Of a DNA stretch of 30,440 nt, positions 1,430 to 11,656 are shown one piece after another. Within the stretch, counting starts at the first letter, position 1, and each line of letters begins with the position of its first letter. A program made the translations under genes and the position numbers. The DNA is from Calditrichota bacterium. GTDB taxonomy: Bacteria > Calditrichota > Calditrichia > RBG-13-44-9 > J075. The notes beneath the pieces were generated by a model. That model made no database searches, was not told the origin of the DNA, and saw only the letters and a program-made list of their open reading frames with translations. Location of the stretch: positions 1-30,440 of the forward strand of contig RFIL01000041.1 of assembly GCA_003695285.1 (NCBI GenBank), given 5' to 3'.

Positions 1430-3490
1430 TTATTCCTGGATATCACCCCGGGCAAAGATGCTGGCGACATAATTCAATACATCGGTCGCACTGTGTTCGT
1501 CGTATCCGAAATCTTTAATCAATCGCGCTTTCACAATATCAATCTTTTCCTGGGTTTCCTTATCCATCACCGAGGAGACCAGGGAGGATAATTTGATGCT
1601 ATCCTTCTGATCTTCAAACAGCTTTAATTCCAGGGCTTTTGCCAGGCGCTCATTGCTTCTCCAATCAAATTTCTTCCCTTCCAGGGAAAGTGCACCGATA
1701 TAATTCATAATTTCCCGACGGAAATCATCTTTTCGGCTTTCCGGAATATCAATTTTTTCCTCGATGGAGCGCATCAATTTTTCATTCGGCTCTTCATCTT
1801 CGCCGGTGTATTTGTTCTTCACTTTTTCCTTCTGTACATACGCTTTCACATTATCAATGTAATTGGCGAAGAGTCGCTTAATTCCTTCTTCATCAGCACT
1901 GATGGCTCGTTGCACTTCATTCTTGACGATTTCGGTGTATTCTTTCTTAACCACCTGTATCAACTCCCGATAACGTTTTTTGGTCTCCTCACTGGTAATC
2001 AGACTGTGATGATCCAGTCCGCTTTCCAGTTCATTTAAGACCATGAATGGATTCACTGTAGGTTCTTCCGGGAATTTAACAATGGCATTGGAAATTTTAT
2101 CCTGCACATAGCGCGGAGAGATTCCTTCCAGACCTTCCCGGACCGCTTCTTTCCGGAGTTCCCGGACATTATCCTCCGTGTATCCGGGGATAAGTTTGCC
2201 ATCATACAGTTTTAGCTTTTGTACCAGGGTTAAATCTGCTTTTTTGGGTTCTTCCAGACGAGTCAGCACCGCCCACATGGCCGCCATTTCGATGGTGTGA
2301 GGGGCAATAAATTTTCCGCGGATTTTTTCGTTATTGTAATCCTTCTTATAAATCTTTATCTCTTCCGACCACTTGGTAATATAGGGAATATCCACCTTCA
2401 CCGTTCTATCGCGAAGGGCCTCCATAAACTCATTATTCTGGAGTTTGCGATATTCCGGTTCATTGGTATGTCCGATGATGACCTCATCAATATCAGTTTG
2501 GGGAAATTTTTTCGGCTTAATTTTATGTTCCTGGCTGGCACTCAACAGATCATAGAGAAAGGCCACATCCAGCTTCAACATTTCGATGAATTCGATGATA
2601 CCGCGATTGGCAATGTTAAACTCGCCGTCAAAATTAAACGCCCGGGGATCGGAATCTGAGCCATATTCCGCAATCTTTCGATAATTAATATCTCCGGTTA
2701 GCTCGGTAGAATCCTGGTTTTTCTCATCCTTCGGTTGGAACGTTCCAATTCCGATGCGATCCTTTTCAGAGAGCAGAATTCGTTTCACCCGAACATGTTC
2801 CAGAACCTTCATCCAGTCGCCATTGTGCATTTCCACTAAACCGCGATAAATTTGACGACAACTGGGGCACAATCCACCTTCGACATATACCTCTTCGAAC
2901 TTATTGCCCAGCAATCCACGGAGAAATTCTTCTCGAATACCTTCCGGGATGATATGAAGGGGTTCTTCGTGCATCGGACAGGCGATATTCTCATGGGGAG
3001 AAGTTTCCACATCCTCAAAAAATTTGGGGACATTAATCCACTCAAAGGAATATAATGCGCCTTCCTCCGTTCGGGAATAATGCTCCAGCCCTTTTTTCAT
3101 TAATCGCACAATTGTACTCTTAGAACTTCCCACCGGTCCGTGTAAGAGTAGCACCCGACGCTCGGTTCCATAGCGATAAGCTGCCGATTTGATAGCGTTC
3201 ATCAGCTTCATCAGATACGCGTCTAACCCGAAGACCGCATCTTTTCCATTGTCAATGGGGTCATCAAAAAACTTGTAATGAATCATCTTCTTTCGTGAGT
3301 CTTCATACTCTTCGACACCGAAGGAAAGAATCATATCATACAAGCGCTGATATGCGGTTCGGGTGACCTTGGGATTTTTCTTTACCAGCTCCAGATATTC
3401 CTCGAAAGAGCCTGTCCAGGTAAGCGCCTGGAACTCTTTGTCGAAGTACTTTTGCTGGATATTCGTGAGTAATTGGGTTGGTGATGCCAT
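1430..3490 (-). CDS. prkA: PrkA/YeaG family AAA+ ATPase ('serine protein kinase')
   Basis: Walker [10 protein letters not shown], Walker B-like [38 protein letters not shown]; RBS AAGGAG upstream of ATG 3490; operon with yeaH and spoVR. Confidence 0.96.
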
Positions 3491-5660: not shown

Positions 5661-6749
5661 ATGGTACCAACAGTAACCTCACGGGCTCCCGGTAAAATCA
5701 TTTTCCTGGGTGAGTATGCCGTTTTAAAAGGTGCACCGGCCATCGTGGCGGCAATGAACCGTTTTGCAACCGTGAGGGTTTCCCCCTCGCAACAGGGATT
5801 CTCCCTTTACTCCCCTTTAATTCATCCTGAAAAATTGACCTTTTCCCTGGACGATAACAAACAACCTCAGTTCTTATCCCTTCCTCCAGAGGTGCTTACA
5901 AAATTACTTTTCTTCTCCACCACCTTTGAGTTTGCTGTTAGAGAACTCTCCAGGAGACAATTGCCCCTTCATCCTGCTGAAATTGAATTAGATACTTCTG
6001 ACTTTTACCTTGGTAAAGATGATCTTAAATTGGGTCTTGGTTCCAGTGCTGCCTTAACCGTTGCGCTCCTGGCAGCTCTTTATGAATACGCTGGTATTTC
6101 TCTGAGAGATGAAGAAGCCCGTTTACATTTGCTTCAGATGGCACTGGATGCGCATCGGGTAGCGCAGAAAAAAATCGGAAGTGGGGTGGATATCGCAGCC
6201 AGTACTTTTGGCGGGGTGTTAGAATTTCAAAGAATGGAGGAGACACTCACTCAACCGGTTTACCTGGAGGAAGTGGAACTCCCCCCAAATTTGTATTATC
6301 TGTTTGTCTGGAGTGGAACACCAGCCTCCACCTCCCGGTTGGTAAAACAGGTTGAAGAATGGGAAACTCTGCACCCGAAACAAGCTCAAGAACTTTATCG
6401 GAAAATGATCGATCTTTGTAAAACCGGTTGTGAGGCTATCAAAATCGGCGATACAAATCAATTTTTAGAGATAGTAGATTCTTACTATCATTATTTGCAT
6501 GAACTGGGCAAACAAAGTGGTGCTCCGATTGTTTCCCCGGTTCATCAGCACCTGGCTGATCTGGTAAAGGAAGCAGGCGGGTTTTATAAACCCTCAGGGG
6601 CCGGAGAAGGGGATCTGGGGATTGCTTTTACCAACTCTCCGGAAACGGCTGAAAATATCAAGAGGCATCTTACTTCAGCCGGTTTTACCGTGCTTCCCTT
6701 AGAAATTGAAAAAGATGGTGTTCAATGTCAAATAAAAGAGGGTCATTGA
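5661..6749 (+). CDS. mvaK2: Phosphomevalonate kinase (GHMP kinase family)
   Basis: RAPGKIIFLGEYAVL, KLGLGSSAAL, GSGVDIAASTFGG, KPSGAGEGDLG motifs; sits in a mevalonate gene cluster. Confidence 0.85.
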   Translation: MVPTVTSRAPGKIIFLGEYAVLKGAPAIVAAMNRFATVRVSPSQQGFSLYSPLIHPEKLTFSLDDNKQPQFLSLPPEVLTKLLFFSTTFEFAVRELSRRQLPLHPAEIELDTSDFYLGKDDLKLGLGSSAALTVALLAALYEYAGISLRDEEARLHLLQMALDAHRVAQKKIGSGVDIAASTFGGVLEFQRMEETLTQPVYLEEVELPPNLYYLFVWSGTPASTSRLVKQVEEWETLHPKQAQELYRKMIDLCKTGCEAIKIGDTNQFLEIVDSYYHYLHELGKQSGAPIVSPVHQHLADLVKEAGGFYKPSGAGEGDLGIAFTNSPETAENIKRHLTSAGFTVLPLEIEKDGVQCQIKEGH

Positions 6750-6751
6750 TC

Positions 6752-8995
6752 ATGGATTCAAGAATACCCAAATTTTACAAACATTCGGTTCTGGAACGGC
6801 TGGAAATTCTTCGGGAACGAGAGATTCTTTCCCCTGAAGATTTTAAAATTTTAGCCAATGGCAGTAATATCCTGAATGCTGAGGAAGCAGACAAAATGGT
6901 GGAAAACGTCATTGGCGTGTTTACCTTACCTATTGGCCTGGGACTCAATTTTTTGATCAATGATAAAGACTATGTGGTGCCCATGGTTGTGGAGGAACCC
7001 TCTATTATCGCAGCAGTAAGCTCGGCCGCGAAAACAGTGCGCAATGCTGGCGGATTTCGGAGTAAAAGCACTGATCCGATTCTCATCGGTCAAATTCAGG
7101 TGGTGGATATCGAACATCCCTCTCATGCCCAGAAAGCAATTTTACAAAACAAAGAAGAAATACTCAACTTAGCCAACAGTCTTCATCCTAAAATGGTAGC
7201 CCGGGGGGGAGGAGCCAAGGATTTAGAAGTCATCATTCACCCCTCTTCCTCCCATCGAGGAGATATGCTTATTGTTCATTTGCTGGTCGATACCCGTGAT
7301 GCCATGGGGGCCAATCTGGTGAACAGCATGTGCGAAGGAGTGGCCTCTTTAATTGAAAAAATCACCAATGGAAAAGTCTTTTTGCGGATTTTATCCAATC
7401 TGACTGACCGTGCTCTGGTGGAGGCTGAATGCACTATCCCCACCCGGTTATTAGCTGGTAAAGGGTATAGTGGTGAAGAGGTTCGCGATGGAATTATTCT
7501 GGCCAATGAATTTGCCATGGCGGATCCCTATCGCGCCGCCACTCATAATAAAGGCATCATGAACGGGATTGATGCCGTAGCTCTGGCCACCGGAAACGAC
7601 TGGCGAGCAATTGAAGCCGCTGCCCATGCCTACGCCGCCAGGGGCCATGCTTATACCTCATTAACCCGATGGTATAAAAACGACCAGGGTGATCTGGTAG
7701 GAAAGATAAAAATACCGATGAAGGTGGGTATTGTAGGGGGACCGGTTCAATCCAACCCCACAGTGGGAATTTTACTCCGACTAATGCGGGTGGCAACGGC
7801 AACCGAGCTTGCCGAGGTGATGGGGGCTGTGGGATTGGCGCAAAACTTTTCAGCCCTCCGGGCCCTTTCCACAGAAGGTATCCAGAAGGGGCACATGACG
7901 CTCCATGCCCGCACTGTTGCCATGGCTGCCGGGGCTTCTCCGGATATTTTTGATGAAGTAGTGGACCAATTAATCAAAAGTGGTGAAATCAAAGTATGGA
8001 AGGCGGAGGAGATTGTGAAACAAATTCGAACTCGTGAAGAAGAGCCCCAAAAGGTAGAAGAAATCAAGGAAGCGGAAAAGTTAGCCTCCGGCAGTGGGAA
8101 GGTGATTCTCTTCGGTGAACATGCTGCTGTTTATGGAAGCCATGTGATTGCCGCTCCTATTCCCATCGCCATTCAGGCTAAAGTGGAGGATGAAAATGAT
8201 GGTATTCATCTGGTAATTCCACGCTGGGGGGTGGAAGAACGACTGCACATGGATACCGAGCATAAACACTCCATCTATCAATCTCTTGACCTGATCATCA
8301 ATACCCTGGGATTAAAAGACAAAAACATGCGGATTGAGGTTTATCCTAATGTTCCCAGAGCAATGGGGCTTGGAGGTTCAGCTGCTCTGGCGGTTGCGAT
8401 TATTCGTGCCCTCTCTCAGCACTATCAACTGAATTTATCTGATGATGATGTTAACAAACTGGCATTTGAATCTGAAAAGATTGTCCATGGAACTCCCTCC
8501 GGGATTGATAATACCATGGCCACTTATGGGAAATTCATCCTCTTCCGAAAGGGTGAACCCCCATTAATGAAACCGATTGATGTTCCCCATCCCATCCCCA
8601 TCGTGATTGGTCTTTCCGGGGTTGAAAGTCTCACTGCTAAAATGGTGGCGCACGTCCGGAAAGCATGGGAAAAAAATCAGGCGCTTTATGATAAGATTTT
8701 CAAGGAAATTGACGAACTCGCCCTGCAGGCTGTCAAAGCCATTCAAAATTATGACCTTGAAAAACTGGGAGAATTGATGAATATTAATCAGGGATTGCTA
8801 AATGCTCTGCAGGTATCCAGCTGGGAACTGGAAGAACTCATCCAGATTGCCCGGAATTCGGGAGCGCTGGGTGCCAAATTAACCGGAGGTGGAGGTGGAG
8901 GTGCCATGATAGCCCTCTGTCCCGATAAGGCAGAACAGGTGGCTGAGGCGATGCGAAAAGCTGGTTATAAAGCCATCATCACTGAGTTGCGCTAA
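6752..8995 (+). CDS. Class II HMG-CoA reductase fused in frame to a C-terminal mevalonate kinase
   Basis: HMGR part (~6752-8030): VVEEPSIIAA, DAMGAN, THNKGIMNG, GNDWRAIEA, IQKGHMTLHAR. MVK part (~8081-8995): GSGKVILFGEHAAVYG, PRAMGLGGSAAL, HGTPSGIDN, GAKLTGGGGGG. The likely start is ATG 6752 (RBS AGAGGG) rather than 6725. Confidence 0.93.
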   Translation: MDSRIPKFYKHSVLERLEILREREILSPEDFKILANGSNILNAEEADKMVENVIGVFTLPIGLGLNFLINDKDYVVPMVVEEPSIIAAVSSAAKTVRNAGGFRSKSTDPILIGQIQVVDIEHPSHAQKAILQNKEEILNLANSLHPKMVARGGGAKDLEVIIHPSSSHRGDMLIVHLLVDTRDAMGANLVNSMCEGVASLIEKITNGKVFLRILSNLTDRALVEAECTIPTRLLAGKGYSGEEVRDGIILANEFAMADPYRAATHNKGIMNGIDAVALATGNDWRAIEAAAHAYAARGHAYTSLTRWYKNDQGDLVGKIKIPMKVGIVGGPVQSNPTVGILLRLMRVATATELAEVMGAVGLAQNFSALRALSTEGIQKGHMTLHARTVAMAAGASPDIFDEVVDQLIKSGEIKVWKAEEIVKQIRTREEEPQKVEEIKEAEKLASGSGKVILFGEHAAVYGSHVIAAPIPIAIQAKVEDENDGIHLVIPRWGVEERLHMDTEHKHSIYQSLDLIINTLGLKDKNMRIEVYPNVPRAMGLGGSAALAVAIIRALSQHYQLNLSDDDVNKLAFESEKIVHGTPSGIDNTMATYGKFILFRKGEPPLMKPIDVPHPIPIVIGLSGVESLTAKMVAHVRKAWEKNQALYDKIFKEIDELALQAVKAIQNYDLEKLGELMNINQGLLNALQVSSWELEELIQIARNSGALGAKLTGGGGGGAMIALCPDKAEQVAEAMRKAGYKAIITELR

Positions 8996-9066
8996 GAAAG
9001 AAATAAATAATCACACTGAAGCATAGAGCGGTTGAGTAAACGTCTGGTAAAGTTAGGAGAGAGCTT

Positions 9067-9630
9067 ATGAGTAATAATGACCAGCAAGTTTCTTTTGATG
9101 ATGAGATGCTGATTCTTGTGGATGAGAATGATAATATAATTGGTTATGAGAACAAACTGGCGTGTCATCGTGGGGAGGGGCTTCTCCACCGCGCTTTCTC
9201 TATTTTTATCTTCAATGACCGCAAAGAGTTATTACTCCAACAGCGGAGTGAACAAAAACATCTCTGGCCTCTGTACTGGTCTAACAGTTGTTGTAGCCAT
9301 CCCCGGAAAGGAGAAGATCTGGAAAATGCCACCCAACGCCGCCTGGCGGAAGAGCTTGGTATTAGCACCCCACTCAAACACCTGTTCACTTTTCAATACC
9401 ATGCCAGATATAAAAACGTCGGTTCAGAGAGGGAGGTTTGTGCTGTCTTGATCGGTAAAAGCAATGATCCCATTTCAGTCAATCCCACTGAGATTGCCGA
9501 TTGGAAATACATTGGCATTAATGAGTTGACTCAGGAACTCGCCAAACACCCGGAAAAATATACACCATGGTTAAAAATGGAGTGGGAACGATTGATGGTA
9601 GAGCACCTGGACGATATTATGGCATTATAG
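9067..9630 (+). CDS. idi: Isopentenyl-diphosphate delta-isomerase type 1 (Nudix fold)
   Basis: LHRAFSIFIFN, LLLQQRS, NSCCSHP, RRLAEELG, EREVC motifs; RBS AGGAGA. Confidence 0.96.
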   Translation: MSNNDQQVSFDDEMLILVDENDNIIGYENKLACHRGEGLLHRAFSIFIFNDRKELLLQQRSEQKHLWPLYWSNSCCSHPRKGEDLENATQRRLAEELGISTPLKHLFTFQYHARYKNVGSEREVCAVLIGKSNDPISVNPTEIADWKYIGINELTQELAKHPEKYTPWLKMEWERLMVEHLDDIMAL

Positions 9631-9671
9631 GTGTTGGGAATAAAAAATGGTAGCCGCATAGGACATATGGT

Positions 9672-10553
9672 ATGACACTTGGTCTCGCAGGACTCAGACT
9701 TCATCAGACGGAGCCTCAGTTGACTGGGCCGATGGACCTCAAAGCGTCCGAGGTGTCGGTCGTCGTTCCCGTCCGCAACAACACGAGTGGATTGATTCGT
9801 TTGCTCGAGGCGATCGCGAACCTCGACCACGACTCTCAACCAGGTGAAGTCATTGTCGTCGACGACGGATCTCGACCGCAAGTGCCGATGGAGGCACTAC
9901 GGTCATCTTCGGATGGGCTATGCATCAGAATTGTCCGCATGCGAGGCACCGGTCCTGGTGTCGCTCGGAACGCAGGCGCTGCCTTGGCGCGGGGACGGTG
10001 GCTCTTATTTACCGATAGCGACTGCGTTCCATGTTCGGGCTGGGTCATGGGCTACAAAAGCGCCATGAACGGCGCGATTGCATATGCGGGTGGGGTTCGC
10101 GCTCTCCACAACGACTTTCTTTCGCGCTACTGCGAAGCGCAGGAGCTCTTAATACCACCTCCATGCGCTGACTTGCGCCCGCTGTACCTCGTAACCGCAA
10201 ATGCGCTCGTTCTGCGCGAGGCGTTTGTCCGCGTGCGCGGGTTCGATCCACATTTCGCAATTGCCGGTGGGGAGGATATCGATTTTGCACTGCGAATGCG
10301 CAAGATTGGCGACCTCTGCTTCGCGCTGAACTCGGTCGTATTCCACGACTTCAGCGGAGGTATACGAACCTTCCTCCGCAGATGTATTAGGTACGGCATA
10401 GGAAACCGGATGCTCGCCAATAAGTATGGCCTTGACCTCGCTCCACAAAGGTTTCGACCGGCTTTAAAAGGATGGCGGGCCACATTGGCAGCGCATCTTC
10501 AATTCGTAGGGCTATGGGTTGGGTATCACATGGCAGCCGGGGCCCGGTCATGA
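9672..10553 (+). CDS. Family 2 (GT-A fold) glycosyltransferase, GC-rich, probably horizontally acquired
   Basis: VSVVVPVRN, VIVVDDGS, GPGVARNAG, FTDSDC, GGEDIDF. The start may be ATG 9732 (MDLKASEV). Sampled GC was 38/60 and 36/60, against 24/60 in idi and 23/60 in the M23 gene. Confidence 0.88.
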   Translation: MTLGLAGLRLHQTEPQLTGPMDLKASEVSVVVPVRNNTSGLIRLLEAIANLDHDSQPGEVIVVDDGSRPQVPMEALRSSSDGLCIRIVRMRGTGPGVARNAGAALARGRWLLFTDSDCVPCSGWVMGYKSAMNGAIAYAGGVRALHNDFLSRYCEAQELLIPPPCADLRPLYLVTANALVLREAFVRVRGFDPHFAIAGGEDIDFALRMRKIGDLCFALNSVVFHDFSGGIRTFLRRCIRYGIGNRMLANKYGLDLAPQRFRPALKGWRATLAAHLQFVGLWVGYHMAAGARS

Positions 10554-10562
10554 CGAGACTGC

Positions 10563-10622
10563 GTCTAACAACAGCATGCAGCGGACAGCGTTGCGAACCG
10601 CCGCTGATGCTGAACATTCAAT
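10563..10622 (+). mobile_element. Degenerate integron attC recombination site
   Basis: R'' GTCTAAC, 5-nt spacer, L'' CATGCAGC (extra G), GG(A)C stem, L' GCTGATG, 6-nt spacer, R' ATTCAAT (consensus GTTRRRY; G replaced by A). Lies 9 nt after the GT2 stop in cassette orientation. Confidence 0.75.
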
Positions 10623-10651
10623 CGAATGAAGAAATGATCGAAATTCCATTC

Positions 10652-11656
10652 TTACCATCGCAGGGTTAAAGAGGCTTTGACAGAATGGGCATCTGCCTTC
10701 CAGTCTACGGCCAACCCACTGCGGGGGATGATCATCTCCGCTCTTGATTTCTTACCTTTCTTTTGCATCCCTTGAATAAAAGCGGTAACAATATCCGTCC
10801 CCCAGATAACCCAGATAGCAGTTTGAAAGCTTTTCTCCAGGGAACGATTATCCTGGTAGCTTCGCCAGTAACGGTTCTGGCTTTCTGCATCCCGGGATAA
10901 TTCATAATTCTGCAGGGCTTCTTCCTTTCTCCCCCGGTATTTCAAAACAAAAGCATAGCATATCCCCATTGAGATGGGAGATACAAACCAGAGTTTTTGT
11001 TTGAGATAATAATGCCCTAAACCGGGGATAACAGAGAAGAGAGCGGCTTCCGGGCCTCTTCTGGAACGAGAAGTTTTTTTAGGGATGAACTGTGGTTTTC
11101 TTTGCGGTTTTTCTTCTCTTTTCGGTTCAATTTTTTTGCTACTCCCAACTGATGTCCTGGTGGAGAGGTCCAAATTGGGGGGACGTCGTTGGGCTTTTTG
11201 TAAATAGGGAAGGGGATCCACTTGCTTCCCGTTTTTTAATATGGAAAAGTGTAGATGAACCCCGGTGGCATCCCCGGTCGCACCGGCTTTCCCAATCAGT
11301 TCTCCTGCCTGAACATGCTGTCCCTGCTTTACCAGAATTTGAGACAAATGATGATAACGGGATTTATAATTCCCGGCATGTTGTAGGACAATGGATCTTC
11401 CGTAGCCGGATTGATACCCGGCTTTTACCACCGTTCCGGCTCGCCAGGCATAAACCGGGTCGCCTTCCTTCGCCTGTAAATCAATCCCTTGATGAAATTG
11501 ATTGTCCCTGGGATAAAACGGGTCTGCTCTCCATCCATATAGACTGGTCACATCACGCCATTCACCCAGGGGATGATAAGAAAGGGTATCACTACCAGGC
11601 GATTGTCCGAAAAGCCATTGGCAGAAGCACAGGAGTGTGATTAAAAATTTTCTCAT
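10652..11656 (-). CDS. Secreted M23 metallopeptidase fused to a C-terminal DUF5683-like membrane domain
   Basis: Signal peptide MRKFLITLLCFCQWLFG|Q; intact M23 zinc ligands HQGID and HLHF; Lys/Pro-rich linker; AALFSVIPGLGHYY plus hydrophobic helices; ends SVKASLTLRW; RBS GGAGG. Confidence 0.8.
   Translation of the reverse strand: MRKFLITLLCFCQWLFGQSPGSDTLSYHPLGEWRDVTSLYGWRADPFYPRDNQFHQGIDLQAKEGDPVYAWRAGTVVKAGYQSGYGRSIVLQHAGNYKSRYHHLSQILVKQGQHVQAGELIGKAGATGDATGVHLHFSILKNGKQVDPLPYLQKAQRRPPNLDLSTRTSVGSSKKIEPKREEKPQRKPQFIPKKTSRSRRGPEAALFSVIPGLGHYYLKQKLWFVSPISMGICYAFVLKYRGRKEEALQNYELSRDAESQNRYWRSYQDNRSLEKSFQTAIWVIWGTDIVTAFIQGMQKKGKKSRAEMIIPRSGLAVDWKADAHSVKASLTLRW

Follow-up and report, generated by a model that had tools for sequence, protein, structure and literature searches.

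The idi–M23 locus and its two alleles

The window analysed here is a stretch of 30,440 nucleotides (nt) that forms contig C324 of a metagenome-assembled genome (MAG) of the Calditrichota (3.58 Mb, 587 contigs, 89% complete). The runs in which the window occurs are hot-spring metagenomes. We studied a GC-rich segment of about 1 kb between idi, the last gene of a mevalonate cluster, and a convergent gene for an M23 peptidase. The segment carries one open reading frame (ORF) for a family-2 glycosyltransferase (GT2) followed by an attC site, and it is very probably a single integron gene cassette that sits outside any integron in the idi–M23 spacer. An earlier note, made from the sequence of the window alone, had drawn attention to it. 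The features of the locus are as follows.

9067–9630, + strand: idi (type 1 isopentenyl pyrophosphate isomerase), last gene of the mevalonate cluster (NCBIfam NF002995, 169 bits, cut-off 127)
9631–9649, unstranded: host intergenic DNA left of the insert, ending ...AAAAAATG, identical in the empty-allele contig L287
9650–10622, + strand: inserted segment in a strict comparison with the empty allele, 973 nt replacing the 6 nt TTAAAA
9650–9655, + strand: 5' end of the putative cassette, GTAGCC, equivalent to what remains of an R' box, TTRRRY (TTAGCC as a variant in the family), after a change of its first T to G
9660–9663, + strand: Shine-Dalgarno-like AGGA within the cassette, 8 nt upstream of the start codon
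9672–10553, + strand: intact gene for a GT2 with GT-A fold, 293 amino acids (Pfam PF00535 Glycos_transf_2, 64.7 bits, gathering threshold 23.3)
10563–10622, + strand: attC site, 60 nt (covariance model R1, a partly circular 56 bits, E 5e-15)
10623–10651, unstranded: host intergenic DNA right of the insert, identical in L287
10652–11656, − strand: M23 peptidase gene, convergent with idi (Pfam PF01551, 117.8 bits)

A second allele of the locus lacks the segment. We compared the Logan contigs of three runs (X1, X2 and X3) from one hot-spring study with the window over positions 8800–11500. Contig L287 of run X1 (5455 nt, depth 17.2), which was located via an exact match to the idi protein, follows the window sequence to 9649, continues with TTAAAA and resumes at 10623. 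The site reads ...GGGAATAAAAAATG TTAAAA CGAATGAAG... with the junction ...AAAAAATG|TTAAAA|CGAATG..., and window positions 9650–10622 are skipped. Over 3583 nt L287 is 99.64% identical to the window (13 differences, the closest 181 nt from the junction) and thus represents another strain of the same species. In this empty allele a clean spacer of 54 nt, which contains a GTT, separates idi from the M23 gene. If TTCAAT at 10617–10622 is taken as diverged host TTAAAA, the net insert is reduced to 9650–10616 (967 nt); BLAST aligns the tail of L287 to window positions 10617–10652 with 2 mismatches.

The earlier note had proposed to look for an empty site in close relatives, and one was found, though in a contig of the same hot-spring study. 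Its predicted sequence, roughly ...ATAGGTG|..., turned out to be wrong as the real site reads ATG|TTAAAA. Similarly, the proposed left junction GTTGGGA at 9633–9639 consists of host DNA, which the empty allele has as well, and the breakpoint is 9649|9650. The right end of the insert at 10622 is exact.

The filled form is likewise represented by contigs assembled per run. Its left junction is bridged by a 390-nt X2 contig (9506–9895) and its right junction by one contig from X1 (10293–10652) and one from X2 (10424–10671), in all cases without mismatches. In X1 the depth of the shared right flank is 21.7, which is close to the sum of 17.2 for the empty form and 4–7 for the filled form, and between about one fifth and one quarter of the X1 population carries the cassette. 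In X2 we saw the filled form alone at about 4x, and in X3 only other copies of the attC were present and the locus itself was not represented. Cells with and without the cassette coexist in the community, which is a genuine presence/absence polymorphism. Another X2 contig differs from window positions 9097–9487 at 4 of 391 positions (9339, 9357, 9360 and 9468), so at least one additional strain of the species lives in the springs.

A chimeric contig was among the outcomes that the earlier note had named as refuting its reading, and assembly or binning could have produced one. The MAG is fragmented, the depth of the insert is low and copies of its repeated attC abound in the community (depth 47–74), all of which could favour such an artefact. 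However, since independent contigs bridge both junctions and the depths of the two alleles add up to that of the shared flank, the segment is not a chimera, and we consider the chance of an artefact to be negligible.

The base composition of the segment is as distinct as the earlier note had reported. In windows of 300 nt the GC content is 0.56–0.60 across 9700–10600 and 0.41–0.49 on either side. The insert as a whole has 57.3% GC compared to a MAG mean of 43.5% (standard deviation 3.5% for windows of 973 nt), and only 8 of 6324 such windows in the MAG are equally GC rich. The GC content at third codon positions is 0.61 for the GT2 gene and 0.40–0.49 for nine neighbouring genes. Further stretches with 57–62% GC were found elsewhere in the MAG (C304:1000–4500, C267:1–973 and C370:4501–5473); these may be foreign DNA or mis-binned contigs.

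The genes around the insert are arranged in the order phosphomevalonate kinase, HMG-CoA reductase–mevalonate kinase fusion and idi, followed on the − strand by the M23 peptidase gene, ftsX and ftsE. The fusion of HMG-CoA reductase and mevalonate kinase is a single ORF at 6725–8995. A look-up of the M23 gene product by exact protein match returned no record. In the nearest relative (G001, idi 83% identical) idi and the M23 orthologue are 159 nt apart with no gene between them; the intergenic DNA is too diverged for a base-by-base alignment, so that G001 informs on gene adjacency only.

The attC site and its family

The attC begins 9 nt past the stop codon of the only ORF in the segment, and its parts are given below.

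10563–10569, + strand: R'' box GTCTAAC, which fits RYYYAAC
10570–10574, + strand: spacer, 5 nt
10575–10582, + strand: L'', with G10578 unpaired
10583–10602, + strand: stem and variable loop, with A10585 unpaired
10603–10609, + strand: L'
10610–10615, + strand: spacer, 6 nt
10616–10622, + strand: R' position, ATTCAAT, which does not match GTTRRRY
10616/10617, + strand: expected crossover point, A|TT here and G|TT in the family

The sequence CAGCAT(G)CAGCGG(A)C at 10572–10586 pairs with GCCGCTGATGCTG at 10600–10612. This gives a stem of 13 pairs with two unpaired bases, G10578 and A10585, on the 5' arm. For the bottom strand we computed a folding energy of −17.2 kcal/mol (z = −3.4), and none of 200 shuffled sequences folded as well. 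The site therefore shows the imperfect inverted repeat of L'' and L' with fixed unpaired bases 5–6 nt from the R boxes, and both bulges are retained when it is aligned to the family model R1. The geometry is exactly what the earlier note had described, with two extrahelical bases and spacers of 5 and 6 nt. Its reading of the crossover G of R' as an A was correct too: the TT of the R' box is retained and the G is replaced.

To characterize the attC family we searched two public collections with the 21 fixed stem bases only, leaving the R boxes outside the pattern. The core was found in at least 120 metagenome contigs and at least 120 genomes (more than 240 contigs) from over ten phyla. Among the matches listed, the hosts are Acidobacteriota, Planctomycetota, Gemmatimonadota, Nitrospirota, Eisenbacteria, Latescibacterota, Verrucomicrobiota, several Proteobacteria and one Calditrichia chromosome. 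The flanks were evaluated for 260 unique copies among these matches, excluding the copy in the window. AAC stands at the place of R'' in 207 of them, and GTT is found exactly at +6 to +8 in 209 and within 2 nt of this place in 231. Position +6 is G in 224 copies and A in 9, and position +7 is T in 242 and G in 7. The most frequent continuation after the crossover G is TTAGGC; TTAGCC occurs in 12 copies. Within the hot-spring runs, the 48 bases at 10565–10613 reach a depth of 47–74 and occur in other contigs with unrelated GC-rich flanks, two of which have GTTCGGC and GTTAGGC exactly 6 nt past the stem.

From an alignment of 140 family sequences we built the covariance model R1. The pair just outside the fixed pattern covaries in this alignment (AU 59, GC 41, CG 5), and 88% of the cells are paired under the assumed structure compared to 26–51% for slid controls. 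Of the 140 pattern matches, 4 are chance occurrences within coding sequence. On the window site R1 scores a partly circular 56 bits for the + strand and 12.8 bits for the − strand, where members of arrays score 42–79 bits. The earlier note had suggested a check with an attC covariance model, and the hit obtained here comes from a family model whose core goes back to the pattern of the window site itself.

Members of the family occur in the arrangements expected of true cassettes. Arrays were observed in L075 and L090, with 7 and at least 11 copies at a spacing of 0.5–1.5 kb, and also in L170. A complete integron was found in the Latescibacterota (L220/L270), where intI (2031–3056, + strand of L220) diverges from two family attCs (1130–1193 and 645–707, − strand) that have small ORFs between them. 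All five family-carrying genomes tested have an IntI above the TIGR02249 cut-off, compared to none of 14 control genomes. These results bear out the identification of the window site as a true attC of an integron cassette. Its position outside any integron is supported as well: the neighbours are idi and the M23 gene, and the intI, attI and cassette promoter (Pc) that adjoin the cassettes of a complete integron are absent.

Among the Calditrichia, an IntI with at least 297 bits is present in 17 of the 40 relatives searched (G002–G040 range), including 8 of the 15 genomes of the same family, and isolated copies of the attC family were found in 6 relatives. On the complete chromosome of one relative (G007, locus L170) there are at least 4 hits of the attC model on one strand within 8 kb at ~3.675 Mb, with cassettes of 30–55% GC. 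This array lies 877 kb from the sole IntI of the genome at 2.798 Mb and is hence an integrase-less array. Near the intI genes of relatives L277, L278, L282, L283 and L284 (within 1.5–20 kb) R1 detected no attC, and the arrays of these relatives may use other attC types.

This single attC type with its 21 invariant stem bases (L029–L268) occurs across many habitats, frequently as a lone copy and in some cases in arrays. Such a distribution implies a very widely shared cassette pool. The spread of one attC type across phyla is consistent with the finding that attC clades group according to environment and not according to the phylogeny of their hosts (Ghaly et al. 2021, PMC8352920). In a Pirellulales MAG (L179:2006–2456) we further observed a group II intron that begins right after the spacer of a family attC, at the place where GTT is expected (Rfam group-II-D1D4-3, 113 bits; D1D4-1, 37.7 bits). 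Two loci from unrelated organisms (L034 and L207) have the same ~19 bases at that place, GTGTGTGCCAGGCATGGCA-like, and the arrangement looks like the class of group IIC introns that target attC sites.

The cargo gene and the route of insertion

The cargo is an intact inverting GT2 of an ordinary kind, which according to its modelled structure resembles MftF, AglE/AglI and ExoM in fold. The start codon at 9672 is backed by the AGGA and by an identical N-terminus, MTLGLA, in the closest homologue (P0002, 67% identity, same length). The motifs DDGS, DSD and GGEDID are present and conserved, and D115-S-D117 is invariant across 48 homologues. The AlphaFold model has a predicted local distance difference test score of 94.6 and shows a GT-A fold, which matches MftF, AglE/AglI and ExoM with template modelling scores of 0.67–0.76 at 16–26% identity; the score is about 0.68 for MftF and reaches 0.76 among enzymes of the AglE/AglI/ExoM type. 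Although the cargo shares the GT-A fold and the DXD motif with these enzymes, it does not qualify as an MftF: the best family match, TIGR03965 (MftF), scores 137 bits and stays below the cut-off of 280, and there are no mft (mycofactocin) genes in the window. Elsewhere, homologues of the GT2 occupy ordinary chromosomal contexts. Some are fused to a TspO/MBR or NYN/LabA domain (P0008, P0041, P0044 and P0048), and at locus L286 the gene lies a few genes away from a methyltransferase gene and a TspO gene.

No orthologue was found among the 40 relatives, in which the best match is 35% identical and lies at other loci; the case that relatives carry the gene in synteny, which would have spoken against a captured cassette, does not apply. 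Because of this, of the difference in GC content and of the adjacency of idi and the M23 gene in G001, the sequence data mark the insert as being of foreign origin, from a GC-rich pool of cassettes that have one widespread attC type in common.

Host sequence is retained through G9649, which is the G of the GTT in the empty allele. GTT occupies 1.7% of the positions per strand in the genome and GWT 3.8%. Genomic attG sites have the consensus GWT and are cut after the G (10.1101/2022.09.11.507474), and in ATG|TTAAAA the break follows the G and the insert has its attC end on the TT side, so the capture at a secondary G|TT site that the earlier note had suspected is supported by an allele from the same community. 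The insert also has the form of a discrete mobile unit, with one ORF reading towards the attC and presence or absence at exact ends. Both of these ends coincide with canonical cassette ends, with an atypical base in the first and in the last position.

We consider it likely, with less confidence than for the nature of the segment, that the integron integrase IntI itself made the insertion; the attC end faces the TT side in the way the mechanism of the integrase requires. In such an event, IntI would have taken the cassette out of an array, either one in the community or one in an unassembled integron of the host itself. After folding the bottom strand of this attC, it would have carried out a single-strand exchange with a double-stranded GTT site (attC x attG), and replication would have resolved the insertion product. 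The integrase could be encoded in an unassembled part of the genome, or it could have been there for a short time only; within the family, IntI genes are common. Once inserted, the GT2 gene would rely on read-through from idi for its transcript and on its own ribosome-binding site for translation. No terminator-like site was found between 9630 and 9672, which makes such read-through plausible. Promoter and terminator scans gave results at chance level, and the cassette most likely has no promoter of its own and depends on idi for transcription. The link between the glycosyltransferase and isoprenoid metabolism that had been suggested earlier is unsupported. The landing place is the only tie between the two, and it is a generic GWT site between convergent genes that is occupied in part of the population.

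Several results weigh against an insertion by IntI or against the cassette reading as a whole. There is no IntI in the MAG, which is 89% complete: the best match is Xer-like and reaches 85 bits compared to the TIGR02249 cut-off of 265. For the same MAG neither R1 nor a fuzzy pattern scan of all contigs detected a second attC. Since the family was collected by means of the window's own stem, the core part of the 56-bit R1 score is circular; the R boxes with their spacing, the arrays and the covarying pair do not depend on the query. A donor copy of the cassette was not found, so the search for the nearest donor via homology of the GT2, which the earlier note had recommended, yielded none: tblastn of the GT2 against 240 attC-bearing loci returned no match, and the homologues with readable DNA (L028 and L286) have no attC after the gene, either by eye or with R1. 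These results give no sign that genes of this GT2 family are commonly carried on cassettes. The contig of the closest homologue, P0002, ends 65 nt past the stop codon, as it might if the assembly had broken off within an attC. Finally, the canonical product would read ...ATG|TTAGCC...GAACG|TTAAAACG, whereas we observed ...ATG|GTAGCC...GAACA|TTCAATCG. The left junction is therefore G|GT and the right one A|TT, the insert ends in ...CTGAAC A where the family has the spacer followed by G, and host TTAAAA reads TTCAAT. This amounts to four base differences within ~14 nt compared to 13 in 3583 nt of the flanks.

Some of these points would suit DNA of integron origin that entered without IntI, as a free fragment (e.g. 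by natural transformation) that illegitimate or microhomology-mediated repair joined to the host DNA at the cost of 6 bp of target sequence. The non-canonical junction bases, the replacement rather than retention of TTAAAA and the lack of a detectable intI are all compatible with such a route. Random breakage is nevertheless not expected to place both ends within one base of canonical cassette ends (xTAGCC on the left, the spacer plus one base on the right), to break the host exactly after the G of a triplet as infrequent as GTT, and at the same time to obey the orientation rule of IntI, and we regard this route as unlikely. We give still less credence to the idea that the segment is all that is left of an integron or cassette array once present at this locus and that the empty allele arose by deletion. 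The frequency of IntI among the relatives and the array of G007 far from its intI would be in keeping with it. However, the locus has one attC only and no remnant of intI or attI, the empty allele is a clean spacer containing a GTT, deletion of the insert from the filled allele does not give the empty sequence, and G001 has idi and the M23 gene next to each other without an array.

Under the preferred insertion by IntI the junction bases still call for an explanation, and given a background divergence of 0.36% ordinary drift does not provide one. It is possible that the bases changed during resolution of the recombination intermediate, or that copies that can no longer be excised were selected. 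Alternatively the indel polymorphism could be old, with borders that diverged while recombination homogenised the flanks, or the receiving strain could have had a different target sequence. A perfect 5-bp inverted repeat spans the right junction (CATTC at 10614–10618, GAATG at 10624–10628), and two of the three changed bases on the right are what makes it perfect. A template-switch mutation at this junction is possible as well, which would leave the third change unaccounted for. We also considered excision out of the filled allele at GWT sites close by, cleavage displaced by one base, an exchange of both strands that leaves a heteroduplex mosaic, and a crossover within the shared AATG. The observed sequences are not reproduced by any of these models.

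As both bases adjacent to the crossovers are atypical, re-excision is expected to be inefficient, and the hybrid sites A|TT and G|GT probably make the cassette hard to remove again. A further suggestion, which we put forward tentatively and think rather doubtful, is that the changes flanking the crossovers (possibly including the two host changes) are non-random and represent either a by-product of the attC x attG resolution or selection that locks a useful cassette in place. If this were true, the locus would be a mobile cassette in the process of becoming a fixed chromosomal gene, with the ancestral empty allele still present in the same spring.

Comparison with known systems

The geometry of the window attC matches that of the aadA7 attC: the R'' box GTCTAAC, spacers of 5 and 6 nt, one unpaired base in an L box, and another unpaired base 6 pairs on. 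In this soil and freshwater type, too, the attC follows the ORF on the coding strand. The window site differs from it in having ATTCAAT in place of GTTRRRY at R' and a G on the top strand as the first unpaired base; moreover, its terminal stem departs from the family consensus at four positions.

Insertions at secondary sites by the class 1 integrase IntI1 were reportedly described in the 1990s for enterobacterial plasmids, at sites of the form GWTMW or G(A/T)T. These cases share with the window a cassette at a short G-T/A-T site outside attI; excision is poor afterwards. They were located on enterobacterial plasmids, and the window belongs to a Calditrichota MAG. The insertion of cassettes outside integrons has been demonstrated in the laboratory only recently, and in genomes it is mostly inferred from lone attC sites. 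A literature search on integrons in Calditrichota found no paper.

The attC clusters without an integron-integrase (CALIN) and the complete integrons of the sedentary chromosomal kind (Cury et al. 2016, PMC4889954) have counterparts within the attC family of the window, in the arrays of L075, L090 and L170 and beside the intI of L220. The window differs from both in that it has a single cassette and no array, intI, attI or Pc promoter.

The closest match is the single attC site lacking an integron-integrase (SALIN), a class defined in the preprint by Loot et al., who found thousands of them in RefSeq genomes and reproduced the reaction in E. coli (10.1101/2022.09.11.507474). The insertion in the window is a SALIN of the attG type and thus of an already known kind. 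Like other SALINs it consists of one coding sequence and one attC with no integrase or other att site nearby, and this extends to the MAG at its 89% completeness. It occupies a genomic 5'-GWT-3' site with cleavage after the G, and it is co-oriented with an upstream host gene that is able to supply transcription, with a cargo that has its own ribosome-binding site. Specific to this case are a wild population with both alleles in one community, an exact target, a Calditrichota MAG as host, and two crossover-adjacent bases plus two nearby host bases that deviate from the exact product of laboratory events. The coexisting empty and filled alleles, from strains that are 99.6% identical in the flank, fix the target (a GTT between convergent genes), the ends and the orientation of the insertion, and they show gene flow from a GC-rich cassette pool that crosses phyla into the Calditrichota. 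With its off-consensus junction bases, the locus offers a specific example on which to ask by what means such cassettes become fixed. The value of the locus therefore lies in being a well-documented natural example of a described route of gene spread rather than in a new principle.

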